The translations under genes and the position numbers were made by a program. From positions 1 through 16,117 of IMG/VR virus record IMGVR_UViG_2740892235_000017: a stretch of 16,117 nucleotides of DNA. One strand, 5' to 3'. Origin of the DNA: a virus. Its lineage: Duplodnaviria; Heunggongvirae; Uroviricota; Caudoviricetes. Below are positions 199 through 14,760 of this stretch, one piece after another (position 1 is the first letter of the stretch; every line of letters begins with the position of its first letter). Below the pieces are notes generated by a model. It made no database searches. It was not told the DNA's origin and saw nothing but the letters and a program-made list of their open reading frames with translations.

Positions 199-371
199 GT
201 CTTTTTCCCTTTTCCGGTTAACGTGACACACCAATAACTCTTGTCAAAAAAGCCAGCAAGCTGAAAGACCGGTATTAATAACCACCTGCACATTTTATGT
301 ACTGCACCATTTTTCTGGCATAAAAAAACCGCTCAATGCCGGGCAGTAAAATCTTTATTACTCAGGAAATT

Positions 372-1085: not shown

Positions 1086-1226
1086 AGTAACACCATTAAC
1101 AACTCAAAAATATCAACACACATTACATAACAAATTGGATTCCATGCAGTCAAGGGGCGTCATTGATGGAGAAAGTATTGGCACAATCGTCATCACGTTT
1201 AATGTCTATGCCATTTTTTGGGGGGT

Positions 1227-1250
1227 AAAAAACCCGCTCGGTCACGGGTT
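1227..1250 (-). terminator. Rho-independent terminator on minus strand (candidate tR'-like late terminator)
   Basis: Minus-strand hairpin AACCCG-tgaccgag-CGGGTT followed by a T-run (plus strand 1227..1250, A-run 1227..1230 plus stem). Sits about 90 nt downstream of the Q-like stop. Confidence 0.45.
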
Positions 1251-1292
1251 TTAGTGGCTTTGCCATCACGTATAATAACGGCAAAATATCAG

Positions 1293-1322
1293 ATTTACAC
1301 GAAATATATGCCTTTTTATCTA
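1293..1322 (-). promoter_or_regulatory. Candidate sigma70 promoter on minus strand (pR'-like late promoter?)
   Basis: On minus strand: -35 TTGCAA (plus 1317..1322), 18-nt spacer, -10 TATATT (plus 1293..1298). Located between the Q-like stop (1339) and the terminator at 1227..1250. Confidence 0.3.
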
Positions 1323-1338
1323 CTTTTGCAATACTTTG

Positions 1339-2010
1339 CTATGAAAATGCCGCCTTTTGTTTTGAACGTGTTCCCTCCACCAACAATAAAGCTTCACTAT
1401 CCAGCCGATGAAAAATGTGTTTCATTGCAACCCAGTGACCAGTAAATGTCTTGGACCAGTTTTTGGTTGTTACTCCCACCAGTAACGCCAGTTCCTGGTA
1501 TTCGTAACCTTCCCCACCAAAAAGCTCAGCTTTTACCGCCTGCGCCGCCAACCAGATCAACGTCTTCAGGCGCACCAGAGTTTTTCCTGCAATTTTTCTG
1601 GTACCGGATTGAGCATTAAATTCAGTCCACGCCCACTGCGTTATCGCGATCTGATGCTCCCAGCAAATGCTACCGCTGTAACACCACAGCAGCCAGGCTT
1701 TATGATGTTCTTCAAGAGACAGAACGGCGCGTCGCCATGATGATGTCGAAAACTCAACCGGACTGACCAGGGCAATTGATGAGCCTTTCGCCAGTGATTG
1801 TTTACCCGGGATCGGGGGATTATCCCGCGTGATCATTTTTCCGGTTACCTCATCGCGGTAACGAATTTTTTTGCGTCTGTAACGCCCTGTATCGAACAGG
1901 GCATTTTCCTGCCAGACTTCCAGCTGGCCTTTTGTCGACCCACTAAGATCCGCAGTGGCAATCATGAGTTGCTCACGAACAAACTGTAAATACTGGTTAT
2001 TCATGCACAC
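1339..2010 (-). CDS. Probable late-gene antiterminator Q-like protein (assignment by position, not by recognised motif)
   Basis: 223-aa ORF immediately downstream of rusA-like and DUF968-like genes, the position Q occupies in lambdoid and Qin-type prophages. Followed by a promoter plus terminator pair. No direct similarity to lambda Q recalled. Confidence 0.4.
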   Translation of the reverse strand: MCMNNQYLQFVREQLMIATADLSGSTKGQLEVWQENALFDTGRYRRKKIRYRDEVTGKMITRDNPPIPGKQSLAKGSSIALVSPVEFSTSSWRRAVLSLEEHHKAWLLWCYSGSICWEHQIAITQWAWTEFNAQSGTRKIAGKTLVRLKTLIWLAAQAVKAELFGGEGYEYQELALLVGVTTKNWSKTFTGHWVAMKHIFHRLDSEALLLVEGTRSKQKAAFS

Positions 2011-2359
2011 CCACCTCTGTAATTCTTATCTCCAGCCGTCCACCAGATACTGGCTTGCCACGTACAATATTGATTTCATCAAACTGCTCATCGTCCATTA
2101 ACAACCCCGCGTGCGTCAGCGCATCCAGCGGTGCTTTCAGAATATTGTCCAGGTCACGGCGGCGCTTATCCGGTGGCTCTGCAATAATTTTTATTGCCAG
2201 CCGTCCGGACAGGCTTAATTTCAGTCGCTGCTGGCGAACAATAAGCACCACTGCCCGGCGATAACGCTCCCCGGCTTTTGATACAAAATATGTGCTGCCA
2301 CGGCGTCGCCAGTAAGTGTTCACCGTCGGCGGGTAAGGTAAAACCAAATCTATGAGCAT
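1997..2359 (-). CDS. rusA: RusA-type Holliday junction resolvase
   Basis: 120-aa ORF. Matches recalled RusA features: N-terminal LPYPPTVNTYWRR, central PDKRRRDLDNILKAPLDALTHAGLLMDDEQ (compare RusA PDRRRRDLDN...DALT...DD), C-terminal GGRLEIRITE. Confidence 0.8.
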   Translation of the reverse strand: MLIDLVLPYPPTVNTYWRRRGSTYFVSKAGERYRRAVVLIVRQQRLKLSLSGRLAIKIIAEPPDKRRRDLDNILKAPLDALTHAGLLMDDEQFDEINIVRGKPVSGGRLEIRITEVGVHE

Positions 2360-2371
2360 CAGTCACCTCTT

Positions 2372-3421
2372 TTACCCGAGCACGCCAGTCGCAAAGGCGT
2401 GATCAAGAAAACGAAAAATTAACTCAATCTGAGAGCCGTACTTTTTCTCAAACTTCAGCGGGTCTGCATGAAGTTCGTTGTGGTGCTCCCGGCACAACGG
2501 TAGCGTGAAAATATCGTGGGCCTTTGTTCCCACTCCCCCCTGACCATGACCAATCAGGTGATGCGGATCGTCAGCTGGCTTACCACAACACGCACACGGC
2601 TGTGTCTTTACCCAGCGCGTGTATTTCTCATTAACCCAACGGCGACGTTTAGGCCGCCTCATGAACGATTCAGGAGACTCCGGATCAACGGCGATACTGA
2701 CAACCGTTTTTTTCTGTGGTGGATTTTGTTGCTGGTGGACGTGAAGTGGCAGCGCAATATTTTTTGTGCGCTGCTTCAGTATGCTGATGGCTGTCTGTTC
2801 TCCCGGTACGATGTCACTCTCACGGTATACGGAGCGGATTTTTTCCACTGGTAATCCCAGCGAACGACGCGCTACTGCCTCAGGTAGTGCATCCACCACC
2901 TGATTGCAGGCCGCCCACCAGGATAATTCGGCCAGCGATAACTCCCTCTCCTGCGTACCGCTTATTGCGTGACGGATGACATCAATCATCCAGGCAACCA
3001 GATTCTGCTGAGCAAGTTGATCGAGTGATTCTGATGTCTGGTCGCGCAGCTGGTTGTCACAGTGCCAGCACAACACCATCGCGCCGGTACCATAACGGTG
3101 AATGGCTGTTTCGCTGTGATGATAATCGCCGTGTGGCCACTGGCAGGATTTCACGTGACGTAATAACCAGTCAGACAGTGCACCTGCACCACCTGCTGCA
3201 CGAATAACCTGCTCATCGCTGAAAAATGGCAGTAATGTTTTATCCTCTGCCAGCGGCTGGCGAACGGCAGGAACGACTCCGGACGGCAGACCGCGCATGT
3301 TTTTCGGTTCCGGCTCCATCAATATTCTGCCGTTATGGAATGCTGACATTGATTCACGGCCCGGCTTAAGGAGCACCATCCCGAGTTCCGGTACCAGAAC
3401 AGGTCGAAGTAATACCCGCAC
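2372..3421 (-). CDS. DUF968-family nin-region protein (YdfU-like, 349 aa)
   Basis: 349-aa ORF with a Cys/His-rich C-terminal block (CACCGKPADDPHHLIGHGQGG...CREHHNELH). Length and position (between rusA/Q and a hok locus) match Qin YdfU as recalled. Confidence 0.55.
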   Translation of the reverse strand: MRVLLRPVLVPELGMVLLKPGRESMSAFHNGRILMEPEPKNMRGLPSGVVPAVRQPLAEDKTLLPFFSDEQVIRAAGGAGALSDWLLRHVKSCQWPHGDYHHSETAIHRYGTGAMVLCWHCDNQLRDQTSESLDQLAQQNLVAWMIDVIRHAISGTQERELSLAELSWWAACNQVVDALPEAVARRSLGLPVEKIRSVYRESDIVPGEQTAISILKQRTKNIALPLHVHQQQNPPQKKTVVSIAVDPESPESFMRRPKRRRWVNEKYTRWVKTQPCACCGKPADDPHHLIGHGQGGVGTKAHDIFTLPLCREHHNELHADPLKFEKKYGSQIELIFRFLDHAFATGVLG

Positions 3422-3422
3422 G

Positions 3423-3710
3423 TTACCTCCAGATGCGCTGCTGGAATGTGCGGGACGGACGCGGTGGGCGTTCGGAATAAGGGAGCCTGACGGAGATTAT
3501 CCAGTGACGACGATCGAAGCTGAGGGCTTTCTCAAACTCATATCCGCGCCTGCGGTAACACTGGATCAGCCATTCGGCCTGTTCTTCAGTGCATGGGGGA
3601 TGCTGGAACCAGTCGGTTTTAAATACGTGCGAACACCGCCCTTGCCTACTGGCAAGGGCGGCAGAATTGTGCAATCTGCTATCGTGCGCCATCGGGATCT
3701 CCGGTGGCAC
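3423..3710 (-). CDS. Hypothetical nin-region protein (95 aa)
   Basis: ORF whose stop abuts the start of the DUF968 gene; coding-like composition. No family recognised. Confidence 0.35.
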   Translation of the reverse strand: MPPEIPMAHDSRLHNSAALASRQGRCSHVFKTDWFQHPPCTEEQAEWLIQCYRRRGYEFEKALSFDRRHWIISVRLPYSERPPRPSRTFQQRIWR

Positions 3711-3745
3711 GGTGTTTCTCAGCGACGGTTCAAGTCAGCCTGATT

Positions 3746-3973
3746 TTATAGCTGCTTCTGAATATCATCAACAGGTAGTCCTGCCAACTCTCTTACCTCA
3801 GAAAGAAGAGAAAGGCTTACAACAACCTCATTACTTCGCATAACAAAACCACATTGAAAAGAACCATCACTGTTTCTGTAAACAACAACCGGGCGCGTGC
3901 TCTCATAAAACCCCGGGATCAAACTGGCTGGGATTTTCACAACACCTCCTGACGTAAAGGAAATGAAATGCAT
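3746..3973 (-). CDS. Hypothetical small protein (about 75 aa; possibly Rem-like by position)
   Basis: ORF 3746..4018 begins with GTG. Preferred start is the ATG at 3971..3973 (MHFISF...) with GAGAAG 5 nt upstream. Position between the DUF968 gene and the hok locus parallels rem in Qin. Confidence 0.35.
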   Translation of the reverse strand: MHFISFTSGGVVKIPASLIPGFYESTRPVVVYRNSDGSFQCGFVMRSNEVVVSLSLLSEVRELAGLPVDDIQKQL

Positions 3974-4152
3974 TATCGCTTCTCTCGGACTATAACCATG
4001 AAAAGAGACGCATTTCACTCAGTAAATCTGAGGATTTTATGCGCAAGAACAATGACTTTTTCTGTCTGCCGTTTATACAATCTGAATTACGTCTGTTTTT
4101 TGAACACCGATAAATCAGCAAGCATTCTCAAATAAAGATTGCCTCCATAGTC

Positions 4153-4173
4153 CACATAGTGTAACACTATGTG
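4153..4173. promoter_or_regulatory. Perfect 21-bp palindrome (candidate operator) upstream of the HigB-2-like/HTH pair
   Basis: CACATAGTGT-A-ACACTATGTG is a perfect 10-bp inverted repeat about a central A, directly followed by TATATAAAAT and the SD GAGGCAGG before the ATG at 4197. Confidence 0.5.
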
Positions 4174-4196
4174 TTATATAAAATGCAGAGGCAGGT

Positions 4197-4569
4197 ATGC
4201 GAATTTTCAAAATCGCCTGGTTTGAACGTTTCGCCCGAAAACATCGGATTTCCGATAAATCGCTGCGCAAAATCGTGGAGCAGGCCGATAAGGGGGATCA
4301 TATCCGCAAATTTGGGTAGTGGTGTCATTAAACAAAGATTAGCCCGAAGTGGTGGCGGAAAATCAGGCGGTTACCGGACAATAATTTTTTACCGCGTTGC
4401 AGAAAAAGCCTTTTTCATCTACGCATACGCAAAGAATGAACGAGAGAATATCACTGCTATAGAGGAAAATGCTTTTCGAAAAGCCGCTCCCCATGTCCTC
4501 AATCTTACTGATGAACAGCTGGCACAATTGATTCAACAAGGCCAGTTCACGGAGGTACCCAATGAGTAA
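4197..4569 (+). pseudogene. HigB-2-like (RelE/ParE superfamily) toxin, interrupted by a +1 frameshift in a G-run
   Basis: Frame A from ATG 4197 (good SD) reads MRIFKIAWFERFARKHRISDKSLRKIVEQADKGDHIRKFG then TAG at 4317..4319. Frame B continues ...GSGVIKQRLARSGGGKSGGYRTIIFYRVAEKAFFIYAYAKNERENIT to 4569. Removing one G from GGG at 4314..4316 joins them in frame. The joined product resembles Vibrio HigB-2 as recalled (GKRGGSRIIYYF...YGKNE). Confidence 0.5.
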
Positions 4570-4879
4570 AAATTACCGCAGTGATGCACTTGCATCTGTA
4601 CATGAAATGATGGAGTCACTCCATGATATCGGTGCAATCACAAAACAAACTATGCGCGAATTCGATGAAACTTGTCTTCAGCCTGCGCCGGTAATGTCTC
4701 CAGAAAGGATCCGTGCACTGCGAGAACGAGAGCATCTGTCTCAACCTGTTTTTGCCAGATACCTCAACGTCAGTAAAAACCTGATATCAGACTGGGAACG
4801 AGGAGTGAAACGCCCGGGAGGTGCAGCTCTTCGGCTTCTTTCAGTTGTCGAGAAAAACGGGATCCAGGTAATATCCTGA
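4562..4879 (+). CDS. HigA-like antitoxin / XRE-type HTH regulator (105 aa)
   Basis: ATG at 4562 preceded by GGAGGT; overlaps the toxin stop by 8 nt. C-terminal HTH-like segment LSQPVFARYLNVSKNLISDWERGVKRPGGAALRLL. Toxin-first gene order is typical of higBA. Confidence 0.6.
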   Translation: MSKNYRSDALASVHEMMESLHDIGAITKQTMREFDETCLQPAPVMSPERIRALREREHLSQPVFARYLNVSKNLISDWERGVKRPGGAALRLLSVVEKNGIQVIS

Positions 4880-4981
4880 TATTCTAATACAACAAAACCC
4901 GCCGAAGCAGGTTAAGTGCGGGTGCGTTGAGGATGCCTGACACATCAGAGGTGGCGAGGGATTTCTCCCTCGCCAGGTCTC

Positions 4982-5137
4982 TTACTCCTCAGGTTCGTAA
5001 GCTGTGAAGACAGCGACCTCCGTCTGGCCGGTTCGGATTCGTACCTCGCAGAGGTCTTTCCTCGTTACCAGTGCCGTCATTATGACGGTTAAACAGATGA
5101 CAATCAGGGCGATTAACATCGCCTTTTGCTGCTTCAT
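4982..5137 (-). CDS. hokD: Hok/Gef-family type I toxin (HokD/RelF-like, 51 aa)
   Basis: MKQQKAMLIALIVICLTVIMTALVTRKDLCEVRIRTGQTEVAVFTAYEPEE closely matches recalled E. coli HokD (RelF). SD GGAGAAG lies upstream of the ATG at 5135..5137. The ORF-track 70-aa form is an in-frame upstream extension. Confidence 0.85.
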   Translation of the reverse strand: MKQQKAMLIALIVICLTVIMTALVTRKDLCEVRIRTGQTEVAVFTAYEPEE

Positions 5138-5400
5138 AGCCTGCTTCTCCTTGCCTTTCGGCACGTAAGAGGCTAACCTACATGTGCAAAGCATGAAATT
5201 GGCCTCAGATTAATGTTAAGCGTCCTGCAAGACGCGTAATGTTAACTGGGGCTTTTCTCTGTCTGCCTTACGGCGGCATGCCCGAGGCAGACAGCCTCAA
5301 GCACCCGCAGCAATTCTACTTAACTCTTCTTTCCCCGCAAATCATTTTATCCCCGATGGTAATGTTCTCCCGATATGGGAATTCCCATATCAAGGTTAAC
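5138..5400 (-). promoter_or_regulatory. hok leader region (mok/sok-type regulation expected); candidate antisense Sok RNA on the plus strand
   Basis: About 260 nt of untranslated leader upstream of hok, containing an inverted repeat TCTGTCTGCC...GGCAGACAG (about 5257..5292). Hok loci are known to carry a structured leader and an antisense RNA; exact ends cannot be set here. Confidence 0.35.
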
Positions 5401-5408
5401 TCAATCGG

Positions 5409-5960
5409 TTAAAGCTCCATTAATTTTCCGGCCAGTTCATCTCGTGGCATTACCAGCCATCCGCGCGATTTAAGCAAAGCCAGGGCTTCTTCAACCGTCA
5501 CCAGCTGGCCTGGCGCATAACTTCGGATGAAGGCGGTTTTATCGTCACGGATCGCCAGGTGAAAATCGATATTCATTTTTCCCATAGCCCGCTCTTTCTC
5601 GTACTGGTTGAAGTAACTGTCTTCGAGTTTTTCGAATACTTCCCACGCCTGATCGGTTTCGAGCATTTTTGCATGACGGGCTGCTCCGCGTTCTGTCCAG
5701 AGGATGAGAGTGCGGGTTTTGGGAGAAATTTTCACCTCATTTTGCGACTCGTTTAAAACTAGTCGCAAATTTTTGAGCTCATCACCAACAGCTTTAAAGA
5801 AGTGTTTTCCCTCAATAAATCGAGATTTATTTTCATGGTGATTCTGCTGTATACGGATTGCTTCTGTTCCGTAAAGGCGGGCGAGTAACTCAGTTGTGAT
5901 TACAGGAATCTGGTTATAAGTGACAGGGGAAAGGTTTTTGACAGTAACTTGAGTCGTCAT
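5409..5960 (-). CDS. ORF6N-domain (antirepressor-like) phage protein
   Basis: 183-aa ORF; N-terminal region YNQIPVITTELLARLYGTEAIRIQQNHHENKSRFIEGKHFF matches the recalled ORF6N signature (...RFIEGKHYF). Confidence 0.55.
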   Translation of the reverse strand: MTTQVTVKNLSPVTYNQIPVITTELLARLYGTEAIRIQQNHHENKSRFIEGKHFFKAVGDELKNLRLVLNESQNEVKISPKTRTLILWTERGAARHAKMLETDQAWEVFEKLEDSYFNQYEKERAMGKMNIDFHLAIRDDKTAFIRSYAPGQLVTVEEALALLKSRGWLVMPRDELAGKLMEL

Positions 5961-6121
5961 GATAACGCCCTCTGGTTGATGAATTTAACTATCACCACCT
6001 TCAGGTCTCAATCATCAGGTGGCGAGACGTACAGGGTTGAGACTACCGGATCAACCAACCGGCCAGCCTTTCGGCTGCCCCATACGCCTCACCATAATTC
6101 AGATGTGCGTGCGCATACGAC

Positions 6122-6145
6122 AATAAAAAACACGCTCGCGGCGTG
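6122..6145 (-). terminator. Rho-independent terminator on minus strand
   Basis: Minus-strand hairpin CACGC-cgcga-GCGTG (plus 6131..6145) followed by TTTTTT (plus A-run 6125..6130). Confidence 0.45.
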
Positions 6146-6301
6146 TGTCTGTCGCGGTTGAATATCCGGGGTCTCAATCCCGACGGTCAACTCGACCGTG
6201 CGGTGAATATAGCCCCGGATTAGTAATTACGTCAACCCCAGCGGCAAATCGAATAAACCACCAGCGCTACCGCCATTGCAACTCCTGCCGTTACGAATGC
6301 C

Positions 6302-6565
6302 TCAGGCCAGGTCATCGTAAACTATCTCAGCGCCAATCAGTCCGTTTCGCTTCAGGCAGTCCATCGCTTTATACGGTAATTTGGCTGACAGGCGAAAATC
6401 ACCCTGCAGCATCAGGCTTATTCCCTTATCCCGGGCTTTCGCTCTGACCGCTGCCTCGCTACGACCAATCAGACTGCCGATACTTTCGACAGTCATCGTT
6501 CCCGCGCACTGCCGGAGTATCAGAATTTCAGCCCGGCACCACGTCTTCCACCCACTCACCGCTGC
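6302..6565 (-). CDS. Small GcrA-like DNA-binding-domain protein (about 87 aa)
   Basis: Segment [46 protein letters not shown] aligns with the recalled GcrA N-terminal domain (W..ERVELLKKLWAEGLSASQIAAELGGVSRNAVIGKVHRLGL). Likely GTG start at 6563..6565 overlapping the upstream TGA as GTGA. Confidence 0.4.
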
Positions 6566-7290
6566 TGTTCTCTGGTGGCGGTAATATCCCGGAGAATATC
6601 CCGGCACTTGTTCAGCTCCCGCAGCGCGGCGCAGACTCGCTCCCACTTCTGAACCTGACCTTTTGCCCGGCGCAGCTCGCGGTTAGCCACATGCAGCGAT
6701 GGTAAAATCAGCCCATCCGGATGCTTTCTGGTGAACGACGGCTGTGACTGCACTGTGACCGCCACACTTTCCGTTTTTATTTCTTCCTGTGTTTCCGCTT
6801 CCCGGACTGGTAACGCAACACATGCTGGCTGAGGAAAGGCTTTACCATCGGTTTCCGCTACGGATGCAGCTTCCGGCTCTGCCGGTAAATCAGCGCCCGG
6901 TATGCAGTAACGAAATTTACCGCCCTGATTCACGCGAATCAGACGCCCTTTGCTGATTGCCATGGCCAGCGATGAATTCGCCCGGCGGGAGGTAATCCCG
7001 AACATCAGTGCCAGCTCATCCGCCGTTTGTGGGCCATGTTGTTCAATCGCCTCAGTCAGCATTTGCGCTGTCACTTTCGGTACCGGTGACACTGGTTCAC
7101 TTTCACCTGCCTGAGTCAGCCACCACATCGACCCCTTGTTATCCGCTTCACCACGGCGCTTCAGTTTCCACAGTTCGTTGACCGCATCTTCACGGCTGAT
7201 TCCAAGGCGGGCCGCCACTACCTGTGAAGAGGCTCTTTTCAGTGCTTTCAGTGCGTCAAATACGGTTTCCATTAAAATTTCCTCCGACAA
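6556..7290 (-). CDS. Hypothetical phage early protein (244 aa) with N-terminal winged-helix-like segment
   Basis: Long ORF immediately downstream of the P-like gene with coding-like composition. Family not confidently recognised (possibly DUF1627-like). Confidence 0.45.
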
Positions 7291-7305
7291 AATCGTTTCC
7301 CAGAT

Positions 7306-7968
7306 TCAAATAAAACCAGCTGCCTTCCGGCGTTCGTATTCCTGTTTCAGCCGTTCAATTGGCGTTGGGCCTTGAGGGTGTTTCGCCCCTTCCAGTTGTC
7401 GTCGCACTGGCGGAACACTCATCCCGTTACCAACATGCTTTGCCCATTTCGTCAGTTGCCGTTCCGCAAGTCGTTTTAACTCACCCTGCGTCATCTGGCG
7501 CTCAATCCCTCTGGTACGCATTTCGAGGCAGATGTGGTACAGCACAGGCTGTGGCCACGGGTATTTATCACTCCCGTCGTATCGCCAGGATTCATTGCGC
7601 CAGCGCCGGTACTCTTCCATCACGGCATCCACCGTAAGACCAAATGGATTTGCCCCACTCTCCGAAATCAGCGCAACAAACTCAGCCAGGTCCGGGGGCC
7701 ACGTTTCACCCGCCCGGCAGCGGTCCATGCACTGACGGCAGACCAGACGGATTTGCTGTTCAGTCATCGCACCAATCTGGGCAATCCAGAGCTTCGAAGG
7801 TGCGGCCCCGTTCTTCTGAGTCCAGCGGTTCGAATACACCTCCCCCATAAGCTCCCACAGCTTCCAGGCCGTTTCCGTTGCTGATAAATCCGTTGTCACG
7901 TTCCCACTGTTCGCGTGCTGCCCGGATTTCCTGAACTGCCCGTGATGCCGTGCCACCTGATGCTGCAT
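7306..7968 (-). CDS. Replication protein P-like (helicase loader); start uncertain
   Basis: C-terminal half (GLTVDAVMEEYRRWRNESWRYDGSDKYPWPQPVLYHICLEMRTRG...ELKRLAERQ) aligns with recalled lambda P (GLPNVSELVDMVYEYCRKRGLYPDAESYPWKSNAHYWLVTNLYQNMRA...ELRRKAADE). The ORF as drawn overlaps the O-like gene by 209 nt. Confidence 0.65.
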   Translation of the reverse strand: MQHQVARHHGQFRKSGQHANSGNVTTDLSATETAWKLWELMGEVYSNRWTQKNGAAPSKLWIAQIGAMTEQQIRLVCRQCMDRCRAGETWPPDLAEFVALISESGANPFGLTVDAVMEEYRRWRNESWRYDGSDKYPWPQPVLYHICLEMRTRGIERQMTQGELKRLAERQLTKWAKHVGNGMSVPPVRRQLEGAKHPQGPTPIERLKQEYERRKAAGFI

Positions 7969-8797
7969 GGCTTCCCCCCTTGCTGACTGGTTTTACCTGT
8001 GCCCTGACGTGCTGCACGTGGCGGGCAAATTTCTGCTCCCACTGAACCTGCGTGAAAACCTTCCCCTCCGCCATCCAGTAATCCCGGAATGCGGCAAGCT
8101 CTGCAGGTGTAAATTCCGGCTCAGGCAGAGCCATACCCCACACTGCTGCCCGTTGTCGAAAATCCGGCGACGGCTGCCAGACAGTAGTCATCGAAAATTT
8201 CCCGATCGGTTCGCTCAGGCCGTCCAGGTATTCAGGTTCGGCTGTCTGCAACGGCGCACCATTCGACTCACTGGTCGGAATACTCTCGCGCGCGTTATGT
8301 GTAGGGTTTAATTCTGTATCTGTATCTTTATCTGTCGTGACTTGTCGTGACAGATGCGTGACACGTCGTGACTCATCGTGACAATCAGCATTATGTTTCC
8401 GCAGCTTTTCCCGCTCCCGCTGCGCTCTCTTGCGCTCTGCCGGGGATTTTGCCGTTTGCGAAACGTTACCATTGTCCTCTTTCAGCACCTGACGTTTTTC
8501 CCATCCGGAAATAAGGTCACCATCCAGAACCCGCCCCTGCATTGCATGCAAAATTGAATCAATTACGTCTTCCGTCACATCAAGCGCACTTGCTAAATCT
8601 TCCGTCGTGACATCAATGTGACCACGTAGTGACACGCCGTGACATGTCGTGACATTTCGTGACGCGCTCACCAGAAGGTGTATATACACTGCCATCACTG
8701 TTGCGATTGGCTGTCCTGATACCCTGGCAATCGTTCGCCACTTGGGGTCATTTGGCATGTCATGCCACAATCTGAGCCAGGCATTAGCCATACTCAC
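7760..8797 (-). CDS. Replication initiator O-like protein (N-terminal wHTH, DnaT-like C-terminal region)
   Basis: 345-aa ORF upstream of the P-like gene. N-terminal WLRLWHDMPNDPKWRTIARVSGQ is typical of phage replisome-organizer N-domains as recalled. Contains two internal arrays of direct repeats (iterons). Confidence 0.65.
   Translation of the reverse strand: MSMANAWLRLWHDMPNDPKWRTIARVSGQPIATVMAVYIHLLVSASRNVTTCHGVSLRGHIDVTTEDLASALDVTEDVIDSILHAMQGRVLDGDLISGWEKRQVLKEDNGNVSQTAKSPAERKRAQREREKLRKHNADCHDESRRVTHLSRQVTTDKDTDTELNPTHNARESIPTSESNGAPLQTAEPEYLDGLSEPIGKFSMTTVWQPSPDFRQRAAVWGMALPEPEFTPAELAAFRDYWMAEGKVFTQVQWEQKFARHVQHVRAQVKPVSKGGSHAASGGTASRAVQEIRAAREQWERDNGFISNGNGLEAVGAYGGGVFEPLDSEERGRTFEALDCPDWCDD
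8335..8382. repeat. Iteron array 1: five TCGTGAC/GCGTGAC direct repeats at 10-11 bp spacing, inside the O-like gene
   Basis: Heptamers at 8335, 8345, 8356, 8366, 8376. An AT-rich stretch lies immediately 5' (about 8296..8334). Confidence 0.6.
8605..8663. repeat. Iteron array 2: six GTGAC-containing direct repeats at 10-11 bp spacing, inside the O-like gene
   Basis: Repeats at 8605, 8617, 8629, 8637, 8647, 8657 (TCGTGAC, TGTGAC, AGTGAC, CCGTGAC, TCGTGAC, TCGTGAC). Confidence 0.6.
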
Positions 8798-8859
8798 CTC
8801 TTCTGATACCGAACTTTACCCACGAACTTCCGGAAGAAATCCGGTATAAATATTGTTGG

Positions 8860-9285
8860 TCAATGCACAACAACAGCATTACCAGGCTGACCACCACTGT
8901 TAGTCAGGGTGCCCCAGGCGATCGCTACAGCGACAAAATCATCCACATCTTTCACCAGCCGATCCCGTCGTTCGACGATCTCCCGGTAATATTCAGAACT
9001 GTGACTGCGCATACGGGCCACCAGCAAAGGCGGCATCGCCTTTTCGATCGCCGGTAACAGCGCCTGAATTTTTTCAACAGCATCAGACGTGTCCTTCTCC
9101 ACCCAGCGGAAAATTTTCTGGGTATTACGGGCCAGGGCTTCCGGATGGCTGTCGTCATACAGTTCCGGGAACGTCATCCCCAGCTCGAAATAAGTCCGGG
9201 CTATTTCAGCTGCGGGAACTTTCTCACCATCAGGATATGCCCAGGCATTCATCGCCATACGGATGTGTTCATGCTTGATTTTCAT
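8860..9285 (-). CDS. YdaT-like protein (CII-position gene of Rac-type immunity regions)
   Basis: 141-aa ORF immediately downstream of the Cro-like gene, beginning MKIKHEHI, which matches my recollection of Rac YdaT. Assignment by position and partial recall. Confidence 0.45.
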   Translation of the reverse strand: MKIKHEHIRMAMNAWAYPDGEKVPAAEIARTYFELGMTFPELYDDSHPEALARNTQKIFRWVEKDTSDAVEKIQALLPAIEKAMPPLLVARMRSHSSEYYREIVERRDRLVKDVDDFVAVAIAWGTLTNSGGQPGNAVVVH

Positions 9286-9544
9286 GAATCACCCCCGTCT
9301 CTGGTTGTGTGTTAGCCTGACACTCGACAGGTAAGCCGTCGGTTGGGTTGGGATAAGAACTGCGATCAATCTCGTGCGGAGTTACTATCCAGCCAGTTGC
9401 TTCACACCAACGTAAAATTTTTTCCCCCGTAAGTTTCGCCCGCCCGGTAATGACATGGCTTACCATCCCCTGGGTTACCCCAACAATTTCAGCAAAATGT
9501 TTCTGAGTTATACCGGAATAACGCAAATATTCTCCAAGATTCAT
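9269..9544 (-). CDS. Cro-like / YdaS-like HTH regulator (91 aa)
   Basis: N-terminal HTH-like segment (ITQKHFAEIVGVTQGMVSHVITG). Divergent from the repressor gene. SD GAGGTG upstream of the ATG at 9542..9544. Confidence 0.6.
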   Translation of the reverse strand: MNLGEYLRYSGITQKHFAEIVGVTQGMVSHVITGRAKLTGEKILRWCEATGWIVTPHEIDRSSYPNPTDGLPVECQANTQPETGVIHENQA

Positions 9545-9574
9545 TGTTCACCTCATGTGATGTCATCACGATCA

Positions 9575-9603
9575 TTAATAGCATTGTTATTTTTAAAAGT
9601 AAA
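9575..9603 (-). promoter_or_regulatory. Candidate leftward promoter for the cro-like operon (pR analogue)
   Basis: Minus strand: -35 TTTACT (plus 9598..9603), 17-nt spacer, -10 TATTAA (plus 9575..9580). Overlaps operator candidates A and B. Confidence 0.3.
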
Positions 9604-9616
9604 TAGCGCCACTATT
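9577..9616. promoter_or_regulatory. Operator pair (OR-like): two 15-bp sites of form AATAGC-N3-GCTATT, centres 25 bp apart
   Basis: Site A 9577..9591 AATAGCattGTTATT; site B 9602..9616 AATAGCgccACTATT. Each has one mismatch to a perfect inverted repeat. Located in the cro-like/repressor intergenic region. Confidence 0.55.
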
Positions 9617-9644
9617 TCAAAGAGATTAATAATCTTATTAGAAT
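9616..9644 (+). promoter_or_regulatory. Candidate rightward promoter for the repressor operon (pRM analogue)
   Basis: -35 TTCAAA (9616..9621), 17-nt spacer, -10 TAGAAT (9639..9644). Predicted start would be close to the ATG at 9652 (near-leaderless, as for lambda cI from pRM). Confidence 0.3.
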
Positions 9645-9651
9645 TGAAGGT

Positions 9652-10152
9652 ATGAAAAGAAAATCCCTGTCAGAGATCGACCTGCAAGCCGCCCAGAGAC
9701 TAAAAGAAATCTGGACGGCGAAAAAAAATCAACTAGGGTTAACCCAAGAGCGTGCGGCAGAAATTCTGGGATTTTCGACACAGGGAGCTGTAAGCCATTA
9801 TCTAAATGGTCAGACACCTTTAAATCTTGAGGCTGTTATCAAGTTCGCAGGGTTACTGCAAGTTCCTCCCGAGTCAATCAGACCAGATATGGCCGAGTTG
9901 TTACAAATTGTAAGGATGTATCCCCAAGAATCTGGGGAGGACAATGTTGTCACTATATCTGCCGATATGGAACAATCGGAAAACGAACTTCCGTTTAATA
10001 TAGACCCCATGGAGCGGGATTTGCTCCAGACGTTCAGGGCTTTCCCCAAAGAAGATAAAGAGAAAATGCTTAAGGAAATGAAGGAGAAAAAAGAATCAAT
10101 TGAAGAAATCGTTGCGCGATGGCTAGCTGCGCAAAAAAGTCGTCGCGCCTAA
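9652..10152 (+). CDS. CI-like prophage repressor (XRE-family HTH, no S24 peptidase domain); PaaR-like first gene of a three-gene repressor-antitoxin-toxin operon
   Basis: 166-aa ORF with N-terminal HTH (LGLTQERAAEILGFSTQGAVSHYLNG) and a charged helical C-terminus. Divergent from the cro-like gene. Followed 17 nt later by the antitoxin gene. Confidence 0.65.
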   Translation: MKRKSLSEIDLQAAQRLKEIWTAKKNQLGLTQERAAEILGFSTQGAVSHYLNGQTPLNLEAVIKFAGLLQVPPESIRPDMAELLQIVRMYPQESGEDNVVTISADMEQSENELPFNIDPMERDLLQTFRAFPKEDKEKMLKEMKEKKESIEEIVARWLAAQKSRRA

Positions 10153-10169
10153 TCTGAGGAGGTCAAAAC

Positions 10170-10361
10170 ATGAGTACAGCCCTTTCCCCGATAATTTCTG
10201 AATTTGAAACGGTCGAACAAGAAAACAGCTATAACGAATGGTTGCGAGCCAAAGTGGCAGCAAGCCTCGCAGATCCCCGTTCTGGAATTCCGCATGATGA
10301 AGTAATGGCTGAAATGGAAAACCTTATTGCTCAATTAGCTACAACGAACAGGAGTGAGTAA
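10170..10361 (+). CDS. Small antitoxin of a ParE-family toxin (PaaA-like, 63 aa)
   Basis: Strong SD GAGGAGG before the ATG at 10170. Its stop overlaps the toxin ATG by 1 nt. Size and context match the PaaA2 antitoxin of paaR-paaA-parE modules as recalled. Confidence 0.55.
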   Translation: MSTALSPIISEFETVEQENSYNEWLRAKVAASLADPRSGIPHDEVMAEMENLIAQLATTNRSE

Positions 10362-10651
10362 TGCTGCCCATTTTATGGCTACCTTCTGCACGTGATGATT
10401 TACGTCAGATAGTAGCCTATATTGCTAAAGAAAACCCTCCCGCTGCACGTAGACTAAAAATACGCATTGAAACATCAGTTTTGTCACTTACTGAACACCC
10501 TTATCTGTACCCACCGAGCGAAAGAGTTCCAAGTCTTCGAGAGATAGTGACTCATCCTAACTACATAATACTTTACCGAGTAACAACATCTAACATCGAG
10601 ATCGTAAATGTAGTTCACTCACGAAGGCAGTATCCAAACAAAAGCTGTTAA
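10361..10651 (+). CDS. parE: ParE/RelE-superfamily toxin (96 aa)
   Basis: ParE-like features: N-terminal LPSARDDLRQIVAYIAKENPPAARRL and C-terminal IEIVNVVHSRRQYP. Translationally coupled to the upstream antitoxin. Confidence 0.6.
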   Translation: MLPILWLPSARDDLRQIVAYIAKENPPAARRLKIRIETSVLSLTEHPYLYPPSERVPSLREIVTHPNYIILYRVTTSNIEIVNVVHSRRQYPNKSC

Positions 10652-10662
10652 TCATTTCTGTC

Positions 10663-10688
10663 AAAAACCACCTTCGGGTGGTTTTTTT
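10663..10688 (+). terminator. Rho-independent terminator after the repressor-TA operon
   Basis: AACCACC-ttcg-GGTGGTT hairpin followed by TTTTTTT (10682..10688). Confidence 0.7.
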
Positions 10689-10699
10689 CTTGCCGTGAT

Positions 10700-10739
10700 A
10701 ATAGCGTTGCTATTTACATAATTAAATAGCAGTGGTATT
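10700..10739. promoter_or_regulatory. Operator pair (OL-like): two 15-bp sites AATAGC-N3-GCTATT, centres 25 bp apart
   Basis: Site C 10700..10714 AATAGCgttGCTATT (perfect); site D 10725..10739 AATAGCagtGGTATT (one mismatch). Same motif and same 25-bp spacing as the OR-like pair. Confidence 0.55.
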
Positions 10740-10741
10740 GT
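10713..10741 (+). promoter_or_regulatory. Candidate pL-like promoter for the early-left operon
   Basis: -35 TTTACA (10713..10718), 17-nt spacer, -10 TATTGT (10736..10741). Overlapped by operator sites C and D. Confidence 0.35.
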
Positions 10742-10919
10742 TTATGCATCAACCCACCCCGTCCCACAGAATGCAGGGCAATACTTCGAGTTACCCGGCA
10801 GTGGCAAGGGGTTAAGTAGCCAGCCCGAGGCGTATGAACATGACGGCGGGAACACTTTGTATAACAGCGCAGCAGGTTTTTAGTTCCGCTACCCGGCGTT
10901 AAGGGTAAATGAGGTCAAC

Positions 10920-11072
10920 ATGGATACGCTCAATCTTGGCAACAACGAATCTCTGGTATGCGGTGTGTTCTCTAACCAGGACGGCACGTTTACCGCGATG
11001 ACGTATACCAAAAGTAAAAAGTTTAAAACCGAAGCTGGCGCGCGTCGCTGGTTAGCCAGAAACACTAACTGA
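10920..11072 (+). CDS. Small early-left protein (50 aa; YdfA-like)
   Basis: ATG at 10920 with SD GAGGT 5 nt upstream; TGA at 11070..11072. Below the ORF-track size cutoff. Occupies the position ydfA holds downstream of dicA in Qin. Confidence 0.4.
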   Translation: MDTLNLGNNESLVCGVFSNQDGTFTAMTYTKSKKFKTEAGARRWLARNTN

Positions 11073-11324
11073 TTAGTACCAGTAAAAACAGGTTGCCACT
11101 GGTTAATTTACCCTGAAAAGTCAGGGCATAACACGAAAGCGCACGGCGAAGTTCGTATATCTGTACGGCGTCGTTAAATTTTCTTCGACCGTGCACTTCC
11201 GGTTGTGGCAATCCGCGAAATGGCGCGGCGGTAAGTATGGCTGGGGTTTCCTCCATTGCTCCAGAAAATGCACCGGGTTGTCAGGTTGACCATACGCTTA
11301 AGTGACAGCCCCGCCACAATACCC

Positions 11325-11380
11325 ATGTGTAGTCTTTGGTGGCATCAGTTCTACTCCGTGACTGCTCTGCCACCCTTTTT
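11325..11380 (+). ncRNA. dicF: DicF-like small RNA with intrinsic terminator
   Basis: Segment ...GGTGGCATCAGTTCTACTCCGTGACTGCTCTGCCACCCTTTTT closely resembles recalled E. coli DicF. Terminator stem GGTGGCA/TGCCACC (11338..11344 and 11368..11374) plus T-run 11376..11380. Lies immediately upstream of dicB as in Qin. The 5' end is approximate. Confidence 0.5.
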
Positions 11381-11547
11381 AAAGTGAATTTTGTGATGCG
11401 GTGAATGCGGCTAAGCGCACGCGGAACAGTTAAAGCTAAAAACAGCGTTATGGGTGATTCTGTATTCCGGCGTTAATTGTTAACTGGTTAACGTCACCTG
11501 GAGGCACCAGGCACCACATCACAAAATTCATTGTTGAGGACGCGATA

Positions 11548-11736
11548 ATGGAAACGTCACTACCAAACGTTAATACGTCTGAAGGGTGTTTTAATATTGG
11601 TATTCTGCTCAGTAACCGGGAGTTTACTGAGGACGCCATCAGGATGAGAAAATATGAGCCTTATCTTCTCAATGATAATTCCATACTCTCCAGAATTGCC
11701 CTTCTTGAACTTGGCATTTTCGGAGGGCAGCAGTGA
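11548..11736 (+). CDS. dicB: Cell-division inhibitor DicB (62 aa)
   Basis: METSLPNVNTSEGCFNIGILLSNREFTEDAI... matches recalled DicB (M.TLLPNVNTSEGCFEIG...FTEDAI), same length. SD GAGGA upstream. Confidence 0.75.
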   Translation: METSLPNVNTSEGCFNIGILLSNREFTEDAIRMRKYEPYLLNDNSILSRIALLELGIFGGQQ

Positions 11737-11872
11737 GTTCAGCGTTTACACTGATGATGACGGTTTTTCTGATAACAGGTGAGCCACAGAAAGTGATTAC
11801 CGGAATTTATGCCAGTAAAGAATCCTGCCATCAGGCAAGAGACGAGCAAAAAATTTCCGGTGAATGTCTCCC
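11733..11872 (+). other. ydfD-like ORF copy truncated by the assembly gap (probable artefact copy)
   Basis: GTG start overlapping the dicB TGA (GTGA). Encodes MSSAFTLMMTVFLITGEPQKVITGIYASKESCHQARDEQKISGECL and then runs into the N-run at 11873. Confidence 0.4.
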
Positions 11873-11882
11873 NNNNNNNNNN
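11873..11882. other. Assembly gap (10 N)
   Basis: Run of 10 n characters. Confidence 1.
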
Positions 11883-11940
11883 ATCATTCCATACTCTCCA
11901 GAATTGCCCTTCTTGAACTTGGCATTTTCGGAGGGCAGCA

Positions 11941-12129
11941 GTGAGTTCAGCGTTTGCACTGATGATGACGGTTTTTCTTATAACAGGTGAGCCACAGAAT
12001 GTGATTACCGGAATTTATGCCAGTAAAGAATCCTGCCATCAGGCAAGAGACGAGCAAAAAATTTCCGGTGAATGTCTCCCGTTAAACAAAGTATCGCTGT
12101 ACCTGAATAACGAAATACCGGCTGGATAA
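11941..12129 (+). CDS. ydfD: YdfD-like small membrane protein (62 aa; Qin lysis protein homologue)
   Basis: MSSAFALMMTVFLITGEPQNVITGIYASKESCHQARDEQKISGECLPLNKVSLYLNNEIPAG has an N-terminal hydrophobic helix. Position directly after dicB and size match Qin YdfD as recalled. Confidence 0.55.
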   Translation: MSSAFALMMTVFLITGEPQNVITGIYASKESCHQARDEQKISGECLPLNKVSLYLNNEIPAG

Positions 12130-12224
12130 CCCGCCAGCCATATTAACGCCATACCAACGGATTAAAAATGCCAGCAATGGCAGGGATTCGTTCACCCTGA
12201 AATCTGTAATGAGGTTTAAACACA

Positions 12225-14696
12225 ATGAGTAAAATATTTATTTGCGCCGCCATTCCTGACGAACAGGCAATAAAAAACGAGGGCGCTGTTGCTGTGGCCA
12301 CAGCCATTGAAGCCGGTGATGAACGTCGCGCCCGCGCAAAATTTCACTGGCAATTCCTTGAACATTATCCGGCTGCTCAGGACTGCGCTTATAAATTTCT
12401 TGTCTGTGAGGATAAACCCGGTACACCCCGCCCAGCCCTCGACTCCTGGGATGCTGAATATATGCTGGAAAACCGCTGGGATGAGGCGTCTGCTTCCTTT
12501 GTCCCGGTCGAACCTGAATCAGATCCGATGAACGTCACTTTTGACAAGCTGGCCCCTGAAGTACAGAACGCTGTCATGGTTAAGTTCGATACATGTGAAA
12601 ACATCACCGTTGATATGGTGATTAGCGCACAGGAATTGTTGCAGGAAGACATGGCAACCTTCGACGGACATATCGTGGAAGCTTTGATGAAAATGCCAGA
12701 AGTTAACGCCATGTATCCGGAGCTTAAGCTGTATGCCATCGGGTGGGTTAAGCATAAATGTAAGCCTGGTGCCAAATGGCCAGAAATTCAGGCAGAGATG
12801 CGCACCTGGAAAAAACGTCGCGAAGCAGAACGAAAAGAAACCGGGAAACATACTTCTGTTGTTGAGCTGGCCCGCGCCAGAGTCAACCAACAGCACACTG
12901 AAAACTCAGCAGCAAAAATCAACCCTGTCACTACTGCCATTCGTCGCGAATACAAGCAGACATGGAAAACCCTGGATGAAGAGCTGGCTTACGCTCTCTG
13001 GCCTGGTGATATTGATGCCGGAAACATTGACGGTACCATCCATCGCTGGGCTAAAAATGAGGTTATCGACAAGGATCGCGAAGACTGGAAGCGTATCTCT
13101 GCATCAATGCGCAAACAGCCTGATGCGCTTCGCTATGACCGTCAGACTATTTTTGGCCTTGTTCGTGAGCGCCCGATCGACATTCACAAAGATCCCGTTG
13201 CACTGAACAAATACATCAGCGAATACCTGACGACAAAGGGCGTGTTTGAACATGAAGAAACAGACCAGAGCTCTGCTGATGCTATCCTGTCGTCAGCAGC
13301 ACAAACTGATCCAGTGGAGACGGCGGAATCCAATTCTCAAAAAAATGAAATCCTGGTGGAAGCTGAACCATCTGTAGAGCGTGAAGGACCGTTTTATTTC
13401 GTCTTTACCGATAAGGACGGGGAAAAATACGGCAGGGCAAACAAACTTTCTGGCCTGGACAAGGCGCTGGCTGCCGGTGGTACCGAAATCTCAAAAGAAG
13501 AATATTTTGCCCGAAAAAATGGCACATATACGGGCTTACAGCAAAATACAGATACCGCAGAAGATTCAGAACAACCAGAGCCGGTAAAAGTTACCGCTGA
13601 CGAAGTAAACAAAATTATGCAGGCAGCCAATATCAGCCAGCCTGACACCGATAAATTGCTTGCTGCATCACGTGGTGAATTTGTTGAAGGGATTAGCGAC
13701 CCGAATGATCCGAAATGGGTTAAGGGGATTGAAACCCGCGATTCTGTGAACCAGAACCAGCCCGAATCGGAACAAAACGACCAGAAAGCGGAACAAAACA
13801 GTCCAAATGCGTTACAAAACGAGCCAGAAACGAAACTGCCTGAACCAGAAGTGCAACAAGAACCGGAAAAAGTTTGCACCGCATGCGGTCAGACCGGTGG
13901 CGGCAACTGTCCTGACTGTGGTGCGGTGATGGGGAACGCAACCTACCAGGAAACATTCGATGAAGAGAATCAGGCTGAAGCTCAGGAAAATGATCCGGAG
14001 GAAATGGAAGGCACTGAACATCTGCACAAGGAGAACACTATCAGCGATCAGTATCACGCCAGCGATAATAAAACTGGCGAGACAGCAAATCCCTTAATTA
14101 AAGTGAACGGTCATCATGAAATCACATCCACCAGCAGGTTGTGGCACCATCTGATGATTGACCTTGAAACAATGGGAAAAAATCCTGATGCGCCAATAAA
14201 CGCTATAGCCGGTAAGTTTTTTGATCCGGCAACCGGAGAGATGGGGCCAGAATTCAGCAAAACTATCGATCTGGAAACCGCAGGCGGGGTCATCGATCGG
14301 GGCACCATTAAGTGGTGGCTGAAACAGTCACGCGAAGCACAATCCGCCATTCTGACCGATGAAATCCCGTTGGATGATGCACTGCTGCAATTCCGGGAAT
14401 TTATCGACGAAAACTCCGGTGAATTTTTTGTTCAGGTCTGGGGTAACAGTGCAACTTTCGACAACGTGATTTTACGCCGTTCATATGAACGGCAGGGGAT
14501 CCCCTGCCCGTGGCGTTACACCAATGATCGCGATGTAAGAACGATGGTTGCTCTGGGACTGGTGATGGATTTCGACGCAAGAACGACTATTCCATTCGAA
14601 GGTGAACGCCATAACGCGCTGCACGATGCGCGTTACCAGGCAAAATACGTTTCAGCCATCTGGCAAAAACTGATCCCGAGTCAGGCTGATTTTTAA
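12225..14696 (+). CDS. Large prophage protein (823 aa) with C-terminal DnaQ-like (DEDDh) 3'-5' exonuclease domain
   Basis: SD TGAGG upstream of ATG 12225. C-terminal region has Exo I-like MIDLETMG and Exo III-like HNALHDARYQAKY. An acidic low-complexity linker (about 13740..13860) and a CxxC-x7-CxxC motif (CTACGQTGGGNCPDCG, about 13876..13923) precede it. Confidence 0.65.
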   Translation: MSKIFICAAIPDEQAIKNEGAVAVATAIEAGDERRARAKFHWQFLEHYPAAQDCAYKFLVCEDKPGTPRPALDSWDAEYMLENRWDEASASFVPVEPESDPMNVTFDKLAPEVQNAVMVKFDTCENITVDMVISAQELLQEDMATFDGHIVEALMKMPEVNAMYPELKLYAIGWVKHKCKPGAKWPEIQAEMRTWKKRREAERKETGKHTSVVELARARVNQQHTENSAAKINPVTTAIRREYKQTWKTLDEELAYALWPGDIDAGNIDGTIHRWAKNEVIDKDREDWKRISASMRKQPDALRYDRQTIFGLVRERPIDIHKDPVALNKYISEYLTTKGVFEHEETDQSSADAILSSAAQTDPVETAESNSQKNEILVEAEPSVEREGPFYFVFTDKDGEKYGRANKLSGLDKALAAGGTEISKEEYFARKNGTYTGLQQNTDTAEDSEQPEPVKVTADEVNKIMQAANISQPDTDKLLAASRGEFVEGISDPNDPKWVKGIETRDSVNQNQPESEQNDQKAEQNSPNALQNEPETKLPEPEVQQEPEKVCTACGQTGGGNCPDCGAVMGNATYQETFDEENQAEAQENDPEEMEGTEHLHKENTISDQYHASDNKTGETANPLIKVNGHHEITSTSRLWHHLMIDLETMGKNPDAPINAIAGKFFDPATGEMGPEFSKTIDLETAGGVIDRGTIKWWLKQSREAQSAILTDEIPLDDALLQFREFIDENSGEFFVQVWGNSATFDNVILRRSYERQGIPCPWRYTNDRDVRTMVALGLVMDFDARTTIPFEGERHNALHDARYQAKYVSAIWQKLIPSQADF

Positions 14697-14760
14697 TGTT
14701 CAACCCCGGTCGTCGCCCGCAAGCTATAGTGGCGGCGACCATGATTAGCGAACAACTCTC

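Follow-up and report, generated by a model that had tools for sequence, protein, structure and literature searches.

The stretch of DNA described here, called the window throughout (16,117 nucleotides (nt), virus record IMGVR_UViG_2740892235_000017), is Escherichia coli DNA that matches contig CCQJ01000094.1 of assembly GCA_000753315.1 exactly; it corresponds to a Qin/CP-933-type lambdoid prophage, of which it covers the early half. Positions 4153-10651, which by their sequence correspond to the early-regulatory, replication and nin-proximal part of such a prophage, carry three toxin-antitoxin (TA) loci (Table 1): a type II pair resembling HigB-2/HigA-2 with a frameshifted toxin gene, a type I hok/mok/sok locus, and the three-gene operon paaR-paaA-parE. 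Very probably these are three independent loci, all from known families and all placed in accessory slots already known, and their combination came about by homologous recombination of the immunity/replication block. Identities and families are assigned on the basis of matches in Pfam, Rfam and PDB, and the activities of the proteins and RNAs are taken from their homologues.

A first-pass annotation made from the letters alone had proposed these three modules, and all three are present (Pfam, Rfam, PDB). Homology searches, which it had named as what might refute it, support each assignment: the HigB-2-like/HigA label through Vibrio cholerae HigB-2/HigA-2 as the closest solved relatives, the hok toxin through Pfam HOK_GEF and a full-length Rfam sok, and the repressor-linked PaaA/ParE pair through Pfam and the PDB entries for ParE2 and PaaA2. 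The modules had been called different classes, which holds for hok as type I, but two of the three are type II. They had also all been placed between the nin and immunity regions; the third is in fact the immunity region itself, with its regulator at the cI position.

Table 1. Positions of the TA loci and associated features in the window (aa, amino acids; HTH, helix-turn-helix; ORF, open reading frame; CDS, coding sequence)
Feature	Position	Strand	Remarks
Perfect palindrome (10+1+10)	4153-4173		CACATAGTGT-A-ACACTATGTG; 21 bp; 24 nt upstream of toxin ATG
N-terminal remnant of HigB-2-like toxin (PF06296)	4197-4319	+	40 codons, premature TAG; carries I6
G5 run	4292-4296	+	+1 frameshift site; G4 in intact O26:H11 str. 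11368 (alignment)
Out-of-frame toxin remainder	4312-4569	+	PGAP: separate 85-aa CDS, or 132-aa ORF 4171-4569
HigA-2-like antitoxin, intact	4562-4879	+	105 aa; HTH_3; about 40 N-terminal residues, then C-terminal HTH
hok mRNA, predicted full length	4893-5306	-	414 nt; 5' end GGGUGCUUGAGG pairs with 3' CCUCAACGCACCC
hok mRNA terminator hairpin	4896-4913	-	17 nt beyond convergent antitoxin gene
hok	4982-5137	-	51-aa membrane toxin; 96-98% identical to HokD of EDL933 and K-12
mok	4982-5194	-	70-codon in-frame extension of hok; layout as mokW of phage 933W
sok antisense RNA	5186-5256	+	15-nt single-stranded 5' tail, long hairpin, U tail
hok promoter-like site, weak	5313-5340	-	TTGCGG-16-TAGAAT; 6 nt before mRNA 5' end; read by eye
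ORF6N antirepressor gene	5409-5960	-	part of unit 5409-6235
Strong promoter-like site	6235-6206	-	precedes isrK/C4 RNAs
Left recombination junction	6379-7000		near-identity to RM10466-type until about 6750, to 2014C-3097/Stx2-type from about 7000
ydaT, CII analogue	8860-9285	-	Pfam label 'YdaT_toxin'; PDB 8BT1 E 1e-76
cro-like HTH gene, ydaS position	9269-9544	-	divergent from paaR
YdaT-box-like inverted repeat	9275-9292		TTGATTTTCATGAATCAC; ydaS/ydaT junction; 1 mismatch to TTGATT-N6-AATCAA (PMC9986795)
Two OR-like operators	9577-9616		AATAGC-N4-CTATT; 25 nt apart; between paaR and cro-like gene
PRM-like promoter	9616-9644	+	TTCAAA-17-TAGAAT
paaR-type repressor gene	9652-10152	+	166 aa; lambda-CI-like N-terminal HTH, DicA/PaaR-like C-terminus
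paaA antitoxin	10170-10361	+	63 aa; Pfam PaaA2 PF21217 E 8e-21; PDB 3ZBE E 1e-21
parE toxin	10361-10651	+	96 aa; Pfam ParE_toxin PF05016 E 5e-18; PDB 5CW7 (ParE2) E 1e-36
Operon terminator, strong	10663-10692	+	hairpin AAAAACCACC-TTCG-GGTGGTTTTT and T run; ends paaR-paaA-parE
OL/PL-like region	10695-10741	+	operators 10700-10714 and 10725-10739 overlap promoter-like hexamers

The paaR-paaA-parE operon and the hok locus

The three genes of the operon are tightly spaced (17 nt between paaR and paaA, 0 nt between paaA and parE) and are bracketed by operators and a terminator. Four copies of the sequence AATAGC-N4-CTATT flank them, two on each side; scoring of the operator sequence gave 15 matches against 3.8 expected, a number reached in none of 200 shuffles. 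Since the PRM-like promoter ends only 7 nt before the paaR ATG, a leaderless mRNA is implied, as for PaaR2 (PMC8630535). Identity to the crystallised proteins is 66% for the toxin (ParE2) and 70% for the antitoxin (PaaA2). Higher values (81% for PaaA, 84% for ParE) are found with one copy in O157:H7 EDL933, which has a PaaA distinct from the crystallised one; two places match in EDL933, and the closer copy is presumably the one that the literature places on CP-933M. All the parts of a three-component TA system are therefore found here, namely a ParE-fold toxin, a PaaA2-type antitoxin devoid of a DNA-binding domain, and a separate HTH regulator encoded by the first gene, opposite ydaS-ydaT.

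The same organization has been described for paaR2-paaA2-parE2 of CP-933P and a second EDL933 homologue, where a three-gene operon also occupies the cI position and diverges from ydaS-ydaT (Hallez, 2010; Jurenas, 2021, PMC8630535). With CP-933P the window further shares OR-like and OL-like operators, the leaderless promoter geometry and a PaaA without DNA-binding domain. In the model proposed for that prophage, PaaR2 is the analogue of CI, YdaS that of Cro and YdaT that of CII, with an OL-like site and an addictive locus (PMC8630535, PMC9986795). The regulators differ, however: that of the window has 166 aa versus 133 in the known system, and its N-terminal domain is a homologue of lambda CI (E 1e-9, 36% identity), whereas PaaR2 was described as lacking sequence similarity to CI (2021 paper, PMC8630535). 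The last 50 or so residues are conserved with the PaaR of the closer EDL933 copy and with DicA. Orthology to PaaR2 over the DNA-binding domain was not found, the proteins being 44% identical overall with the N-terminus unaligned, in a comparison made with the EDL933 PaaR and not with the PaaR2 of CP-933P. The regulator has no S24 peptidase domain, and the window is free of LexA boxes (CTGT-N8-ACAG). The operator sequence also differs from that of CP-933P, and the prophage would therefore be heteroimmune.

A parallel is offered by lambda cI-rexA-rexB, in which accessory genes are likewise co-transcribed with the lysogenic repressor and lie between its gene and OL/PL; the lambda cargo RexAB is unrelated, and in the window the rexAB slot holds a toxin-antitoxin pair. 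As proposed here, paaA-parE would be co-transcribed with paaR, the CI analogue, from the leaderless PRM-like promoter, between the OR-like and OL-like operators. The repressor state of the lysogen would then also supply the labile PaaA against ParE, making the immunity region addictive. A tblastn search with ParE against 50,697 phage records matched only phage Evi (66%). The identical module (100% at the protein level) is present in the Stx2-encoding prophages of strains OkiPb01682 and FORC_069, whose repressor is therefore without the S24 autocleavage domain too.

An apparent fourth module adjoins the operon. Automated TA finders would report the pair at 8860-9544, but this candidate was rejected on the literature: YdaS and YdaT are Cro and CII analogues, and the YdaT of CP-933P is a CII-type DNA-binding protein (Jurenas, 2021, PMC8630535; Prolic-Kalinsek, 2023, PMC9986795).

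From its sequence, the hok/mok/sok locus is complete and looks intact. Pfam HOK_GEF matches the minus strand at 4982-5137/5194 (E 4e-23, 81 bits against a cut-off of 22), and the Rfam sok model RF01794 is matched over its full length (model positions 1-157) at 5132-5306 of the same strand, with 117 bits against a gathering score of 59. The minimum-energy fold of the mRNA pairs nt 1-12 with the 3' region, in a fold-back of the tac/fbi type (z = -8.4), and the sok terminator hairpin has a z of -4.4; a candidate sok promoter, TTGCCT-17-TAACCT, was read by eye. As in the hokW/mokW/sokW locus of Stx2 phage 933W and in hok/mok/sok of plasmid R1, mok extends hok in frame and sok is antisense to the leader. 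The 933W annotation, from which the sok coordinates were carried over, maps exactly onto the window at 91% DNA identity; in 933W the locus is found close to the genome's right end, whereas that of the window lies in the nin-proximal early region. By homology, the stable folded hok mRNA would be held untranslated by the short-lived Sok antisense RNA, and loss of the locus would let Hok depolarise the membrane. Codon 47 of hok (4994-4997, minus strand) is a Tyr UAC in a UACG context; UACG is the motif for A-to-I editing by TadA, which is reported to recode Tyr to Cys in hokC/D/E mRNAs (bioRxiv 10.1101/2025.08.07.668861).

A close chromosomal parallel is Qin of K-12 (rem-hokD-relE-relB), whose order is the same: Q, DUF968 (ydfU), then hokD, then dicC/dicA, dicF and dicB, with further genes between. 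Its HokD is 98% identical to the Hok of the window, and there too a RelE-superfamily type II pair directly adjoins hok. In Qin, however, this pair is relBE on the 5' side, whereas the window has a different family on the 3' side. Qin hok also lacks the leader (mok/sok), with homology confined to 4894-5151 and ending where relE begins, while the leader of the window is complete. The EDL933 prophage that bears paaR-paaA-parE likewise has hok after DUF968, so that the two loci already co-occur there.

Defence, recombination and the question of a chimeric contig

Several points weigh against reading the interval as three TA loci combined in one prophage. No activity of ParE2 was detected under any expression state of its locus (Jurenas et al., PMC8630535), and some chromosomal hok loci of intact appearance failed in post-segregational killing in earlier work cited in a preprint (bioRxiv 10.1101/2025.08.07.668861). 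In NCBIfam, Hok falls below the library cut-off and no model matches the HigB-2-like toxin. The hok and sok promoters are under the threshold of a consensus scan, the palindrome at 4153-4173 is assigned as an operator by position only, and the triple arrangement is known from one draft contig.

Could the loci instead be mainly anti-phage cargo, guarding the lysogen by abortive infection or exclusion rather than acting as addiction modules? Such a role is unlikely, although it draws on more than one observation: paaA-parE takes the position of rexAB in lambda, a related Stx2 prophage has a Ser/Thr kinase and PP2C pair on the 5' side of hok, prophages show an enrichment of hok (bioRxiv 10.1101/2025.08.07.668861), and toxins of the RelE/ParE superfamily are found in defence systems (PMC11980606). 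However, a PADLOC scan of all the toxin and antitoxin proteins returned only generic HTH matches and so lent no support to a named defence system, in the same Hok survey hok was not enriched in the vicinity of defence systems, the phenotype reported for paaR2-paaA2-parE2 is the stabilisation of plasmids (PMC8630535), and one of the three toxins is dead. The defence cargo suggested by the first-pass annotation is not supported; nothing points to a defence role.

Comparison with related prophages bears on how the three TA loci came to lie together. Over positions 1-6750 the window differs from the RM10466-type prophage (L001) at only 9 positions, and from about 7000 to 11076 it is near-identical to the 2014C-3097-type (L006). 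Because near-identity switches in this way between the two types, the paaR-paaA-parE module is read from the sequence as having arrived by exchange of an immunity/replication block of about 4 kb through homologous recombination, and not by insertion of a cassette. The exchange runs through shared genes, DUF1627 on the left and DUF1391 on the right. In prophages of the RM10466 type the immunity region is of the DicA type and carries no TA pair; the block, of Stx2-prophage type, would have entered a backbone already holding hok and the decayed HigBA-2-like pair. Both parental types are found together in the complete genomes of OkiPb01682, OkiPb01698 and strain 4. At the left edge lies the remnant of a gene for a DNA-binding protein (6302-6646 / 6380-6559), truncated exactly where Stx2-type homology begins (6379); it is an older recombination scar, annotated by PGAP as a pseudogene in relatives.

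Around hok the picture is different. The block at 4891-5325 is a discrete homology unit that ends on its 3' side at one and the same place in EDL933 and Qin, and its neighbours vary. On the 3' side there is nothing in EDL933, OkiPb01682 and FORC_069, rem in Qin and PPompW, the HigBA-2-like pair in the window and O26, and this pair with Doc and a partner in O104:H4. On the 5' side there is ORF6N with the C4/isrK RNAs in the window, a kinase and PP2C in OkiPb01682, an alpha/beta hydrolase in EDL933 and relBE in Qin. In the Stx2 prophage of OkiPb01682 (L007 5658-7152) the 5' pair consists of a eukaryote-like Ser/Thr kinase and a PP2C phosphatase, in the slot that holds the antirepressor in the window. 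Variable neighbours around a constant block support turnover around hok, so that the suggested turnover at fixed insertion points stands for hok, and does not extend to the ParE module, which came by block exchange. In O104:H4 str. 2009EL-2071 (L019 5001-6779), a doubly frameshifted HigB-2-like toxin, its intact antitoxin, Doc (Fic/DOC) with a 59-aa upstream partner and hokD lie within 1.8 kb. With three TA loci in so short a space in that prophage, the density seen in the window is not exceptional.

A chimeric contig would explain the arrangement otherwise: two co-resident prophages would have been joined in assembly via their shared segment of about 0.9 kb (6379-7286), and the modules would not belong to one prophage. 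The combination is indeed seen only in its own source. Of 5,426 complete genomes, not one has 80% or more of the interval, and CCQJ01000094.1 is the only contig among those examined with all three modules; the 24 longest contigs with the 40-aa toxin fragment all have DicA-type immunity without PaaA/ParE. Related strains moreover hold both parental prophages 170-225 kb apart. The scaffold itself contains a gap of 10 Ns (11873-11882; flanks 11675-12080), where the 198 bp before are repeated after it at 98% identity, as for two contig ends scaffolded together; the segment with exo, xis and int (11883-16117) may come from a different prophage copy. Yet positions 4153-10651 contain no Ns, and all three modules lie on one contig to the left of the gap. 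Assemblers usually break at two-copy repeats rather than read across them, crossovers inside shared genes are the usual route to lambdoid mosaics, and the flank at 11077-11872 fits neither parent well (about 93%), as would be the case in a natural mosaic. An artefact of this kind is therefore improbable. That all this is one prophage, as first supposed, agrees with the single contig carrying the modules, with the reservation that a single draft contig is also all that the arrangement rests on.

Recombination of the immunity block thus remains the preferred origin. A bolder version of it, in which an addictive immunity module is spreading, is doubtful: the paaA-parE block, of a type known from co-resident Stx2 prophages, would have overwritten the TA-free DicA-type block of a second prophage by gene conversion, and the orphan HigA-2-like antitoxin, kept repeatedly, might serve as anti-addiction against intact HigB-2-like toxins of incoming prophages. 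Jurenas et al. (PMC8630535) have proposed that a locus of the paaR-paaA-parE type biases recombination at the immunity region.

Decay of the HigB-2-like toxin

The reported decay of the first toxin is borne out by its alignment with the intact allele of O26:H11 str. 11368, whose 123-aa product has the usual length in the family and matches RelE PF06296 with 161 bits (cut-off 27), no second family appearing in a laxer Pfam scan. In the window, one extra G shifts the frame at codon 33 and leads to a stop at codon 41. The two resulting frames jointly span profile positions 1-120, the first (4197-4319) covering positions 1-35 (E 4e-9) and the ORF at 4171-4569 positions 31-120 (E 8e-33). Residue 6, an Asn in all 24 homologues, is Ile in the window; as N6 is kept in another frameshifted allele, that of 2014C-4587, I6 is a second hit. 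No intact toxin reading frame is therefore present.

The antitoxin frame is intact. Its start overlaps the toxin stop (ATGA, 4562-4569), with GGAGG 6 nt upstream as its own ribosome-binding site. It matches HigA-2 in PDB over the HTH domain (E 7e-8), with equal protein length and the same domain order, and the toxin profile has HigB-2 as its sole match among solved structures (E 1.7e-4). V. cholerae HigB-2/HigA-2 (PDB 5JAA, 5JA8) is the only solved relative found for toxin and antitoxin alike, and it shares the overlapping genes with the toxin first, a 123-aa toxin with the core G-x-G-x-x-K-x-R...G-K-S-G-G-y-R, and an antitoxin of about 104 aa with its HTH at the C-terminus. The similarity is remote, with E values of about 2e-4 for the toxin and 7e-8 for the antitoxin, and the V. 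cholerae pair belongs to a superintegron, whereas that of the window is prophage-borne with a frameshifted toxin. PF06296 toxins are called HigB2/RelE, ribosome-dependent mRNases encoded in toxin-then-antitoxin order (review, PMC11980606); the 'HigB-2-like/HigA' label holds on account of this naming and of the structure matches. By analogy, the toxin of the window would have acted as a ribosome-dependent mRNA endonuclease; it is dead through the codon-33 shift and N6I. With a dead toxin and an intact antitoxin/repressor, the module would no longer be able to kill. The palindrome upstream, judged by its position, is a candidate operator to which the HTH antitoxin probably still binds. The ORF at 3746-4018 (64/90 aa) travels with the cassette; no Pfam family was found for it, and its identification as Rem was rejected (BLASTP E 0.31).

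How widespread is this state? At least 10 independent complete genomes share the 1.3-kb region of the window, frameshift included, at 100% identity. The cassette is present in 215 genomes, and these were sampled evenly, which gave 47 close alleles, 16 of them 691 bp long and the other 31 690 bp; the G5 insertion itself was checked in the window and in loci L001, L003 and L009-L015 only, other alleles being judged by length. The O26:H11 allele is thus verified as intact, while those of O157:H7 and O145, one base shorter, look intact by length. In a protein collection, 1000 contigs or more carry the intact protein, and the same holds for the 85-aa fragment; the exact 40-aa fragment is seen on 274, and a further intact protein, with 85% identity to the O26:H11 toxin, on 654. 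Alleles at 80-84% identity, from an O104:H4 prophage and phage PhiR12_3, are frameshifted elsewhere, at about codon 14, the former with a second frameshift near codon 95, and in both the antitoxin frame has no stop. Divergent alleles have lost the toxin function independently and at different sites, in at least two frameshift lineages, and have kept the antitoxin.

That the split toxin still works, through programmed +1 frameshifting, phase variation of the homopolymer or as a two-piece protein, is very hard to credit. The G run at the shift, the PGAP annotation of the two pieces as proteins and the wide spread of the allele speak for it, but a G4/G5 tract is too short for efficient slippage, no stall codon or stimulatory signal is evident, and the invariant N6 is mutated as well. 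The frameshifts differ among divergent alleles, one of which has two, a pattern of decay and not of regulation; programmed frameshifting was rejected on these grounds. A sequencing error, for which the position in a homopolymer run of a draft genome might speak, is practically excluded by the identical complete genomes, the O26:H11 alignment, the extra base that length indicates in the sampled alleles and the hundreds of contigs bearing the fragments.

Neighbouring genes and significance

The backbone gene order is common to the window, K-12 Qin and an EDL933 prophage. The minus strand encodes the Q antiterminator, RusA, DUF968, two small ORFs, hok, the ORF6N antirepressor, DUF1627, P-like and DnaT/O-like replication genes, ydaT and the cro-like gene; the plus strand encodes the repressor at the cI position, paaA, parE, DUF1391, DicF, dicB, a RecE-like exonuclease, xis and int. 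Between the strong promoter-like site and the ORF6N gene, Rfam identifies isrK (6125-6199) and a C4 antisense RNA (6015-6099), both on the minus strand, and the whole resembles an antirepressor control unit of the P1 immI-like or Gifsy isrK type. The small RNA DicF (11324-11375; Rfam 61 bits) and dicB (11548-11736) follow the OL/PL-like region, as in Qin. DicF and dicB are cell-division inhibitors.

The observation of three TA modules in this interval is correct but already known: all the components belong to described families, and identical sequences are annotated in RefSeq. A specialist will find nothing surprising in it, and it opens no long-standing question. It does confirm that the annotation is sound, and that in the Qin/CP-933-type prophages of Shiga toxin-producing E. 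coli TA loci cluster in two places, beside hok and after the gene of the repressor. The HigB-2-like pair provides a natural example of a toxin decaying first while its antitoxin is retained, and the paaR-paaA-parE operon one of an immunity block that moves, with its TA cargo, between prophage backbones.

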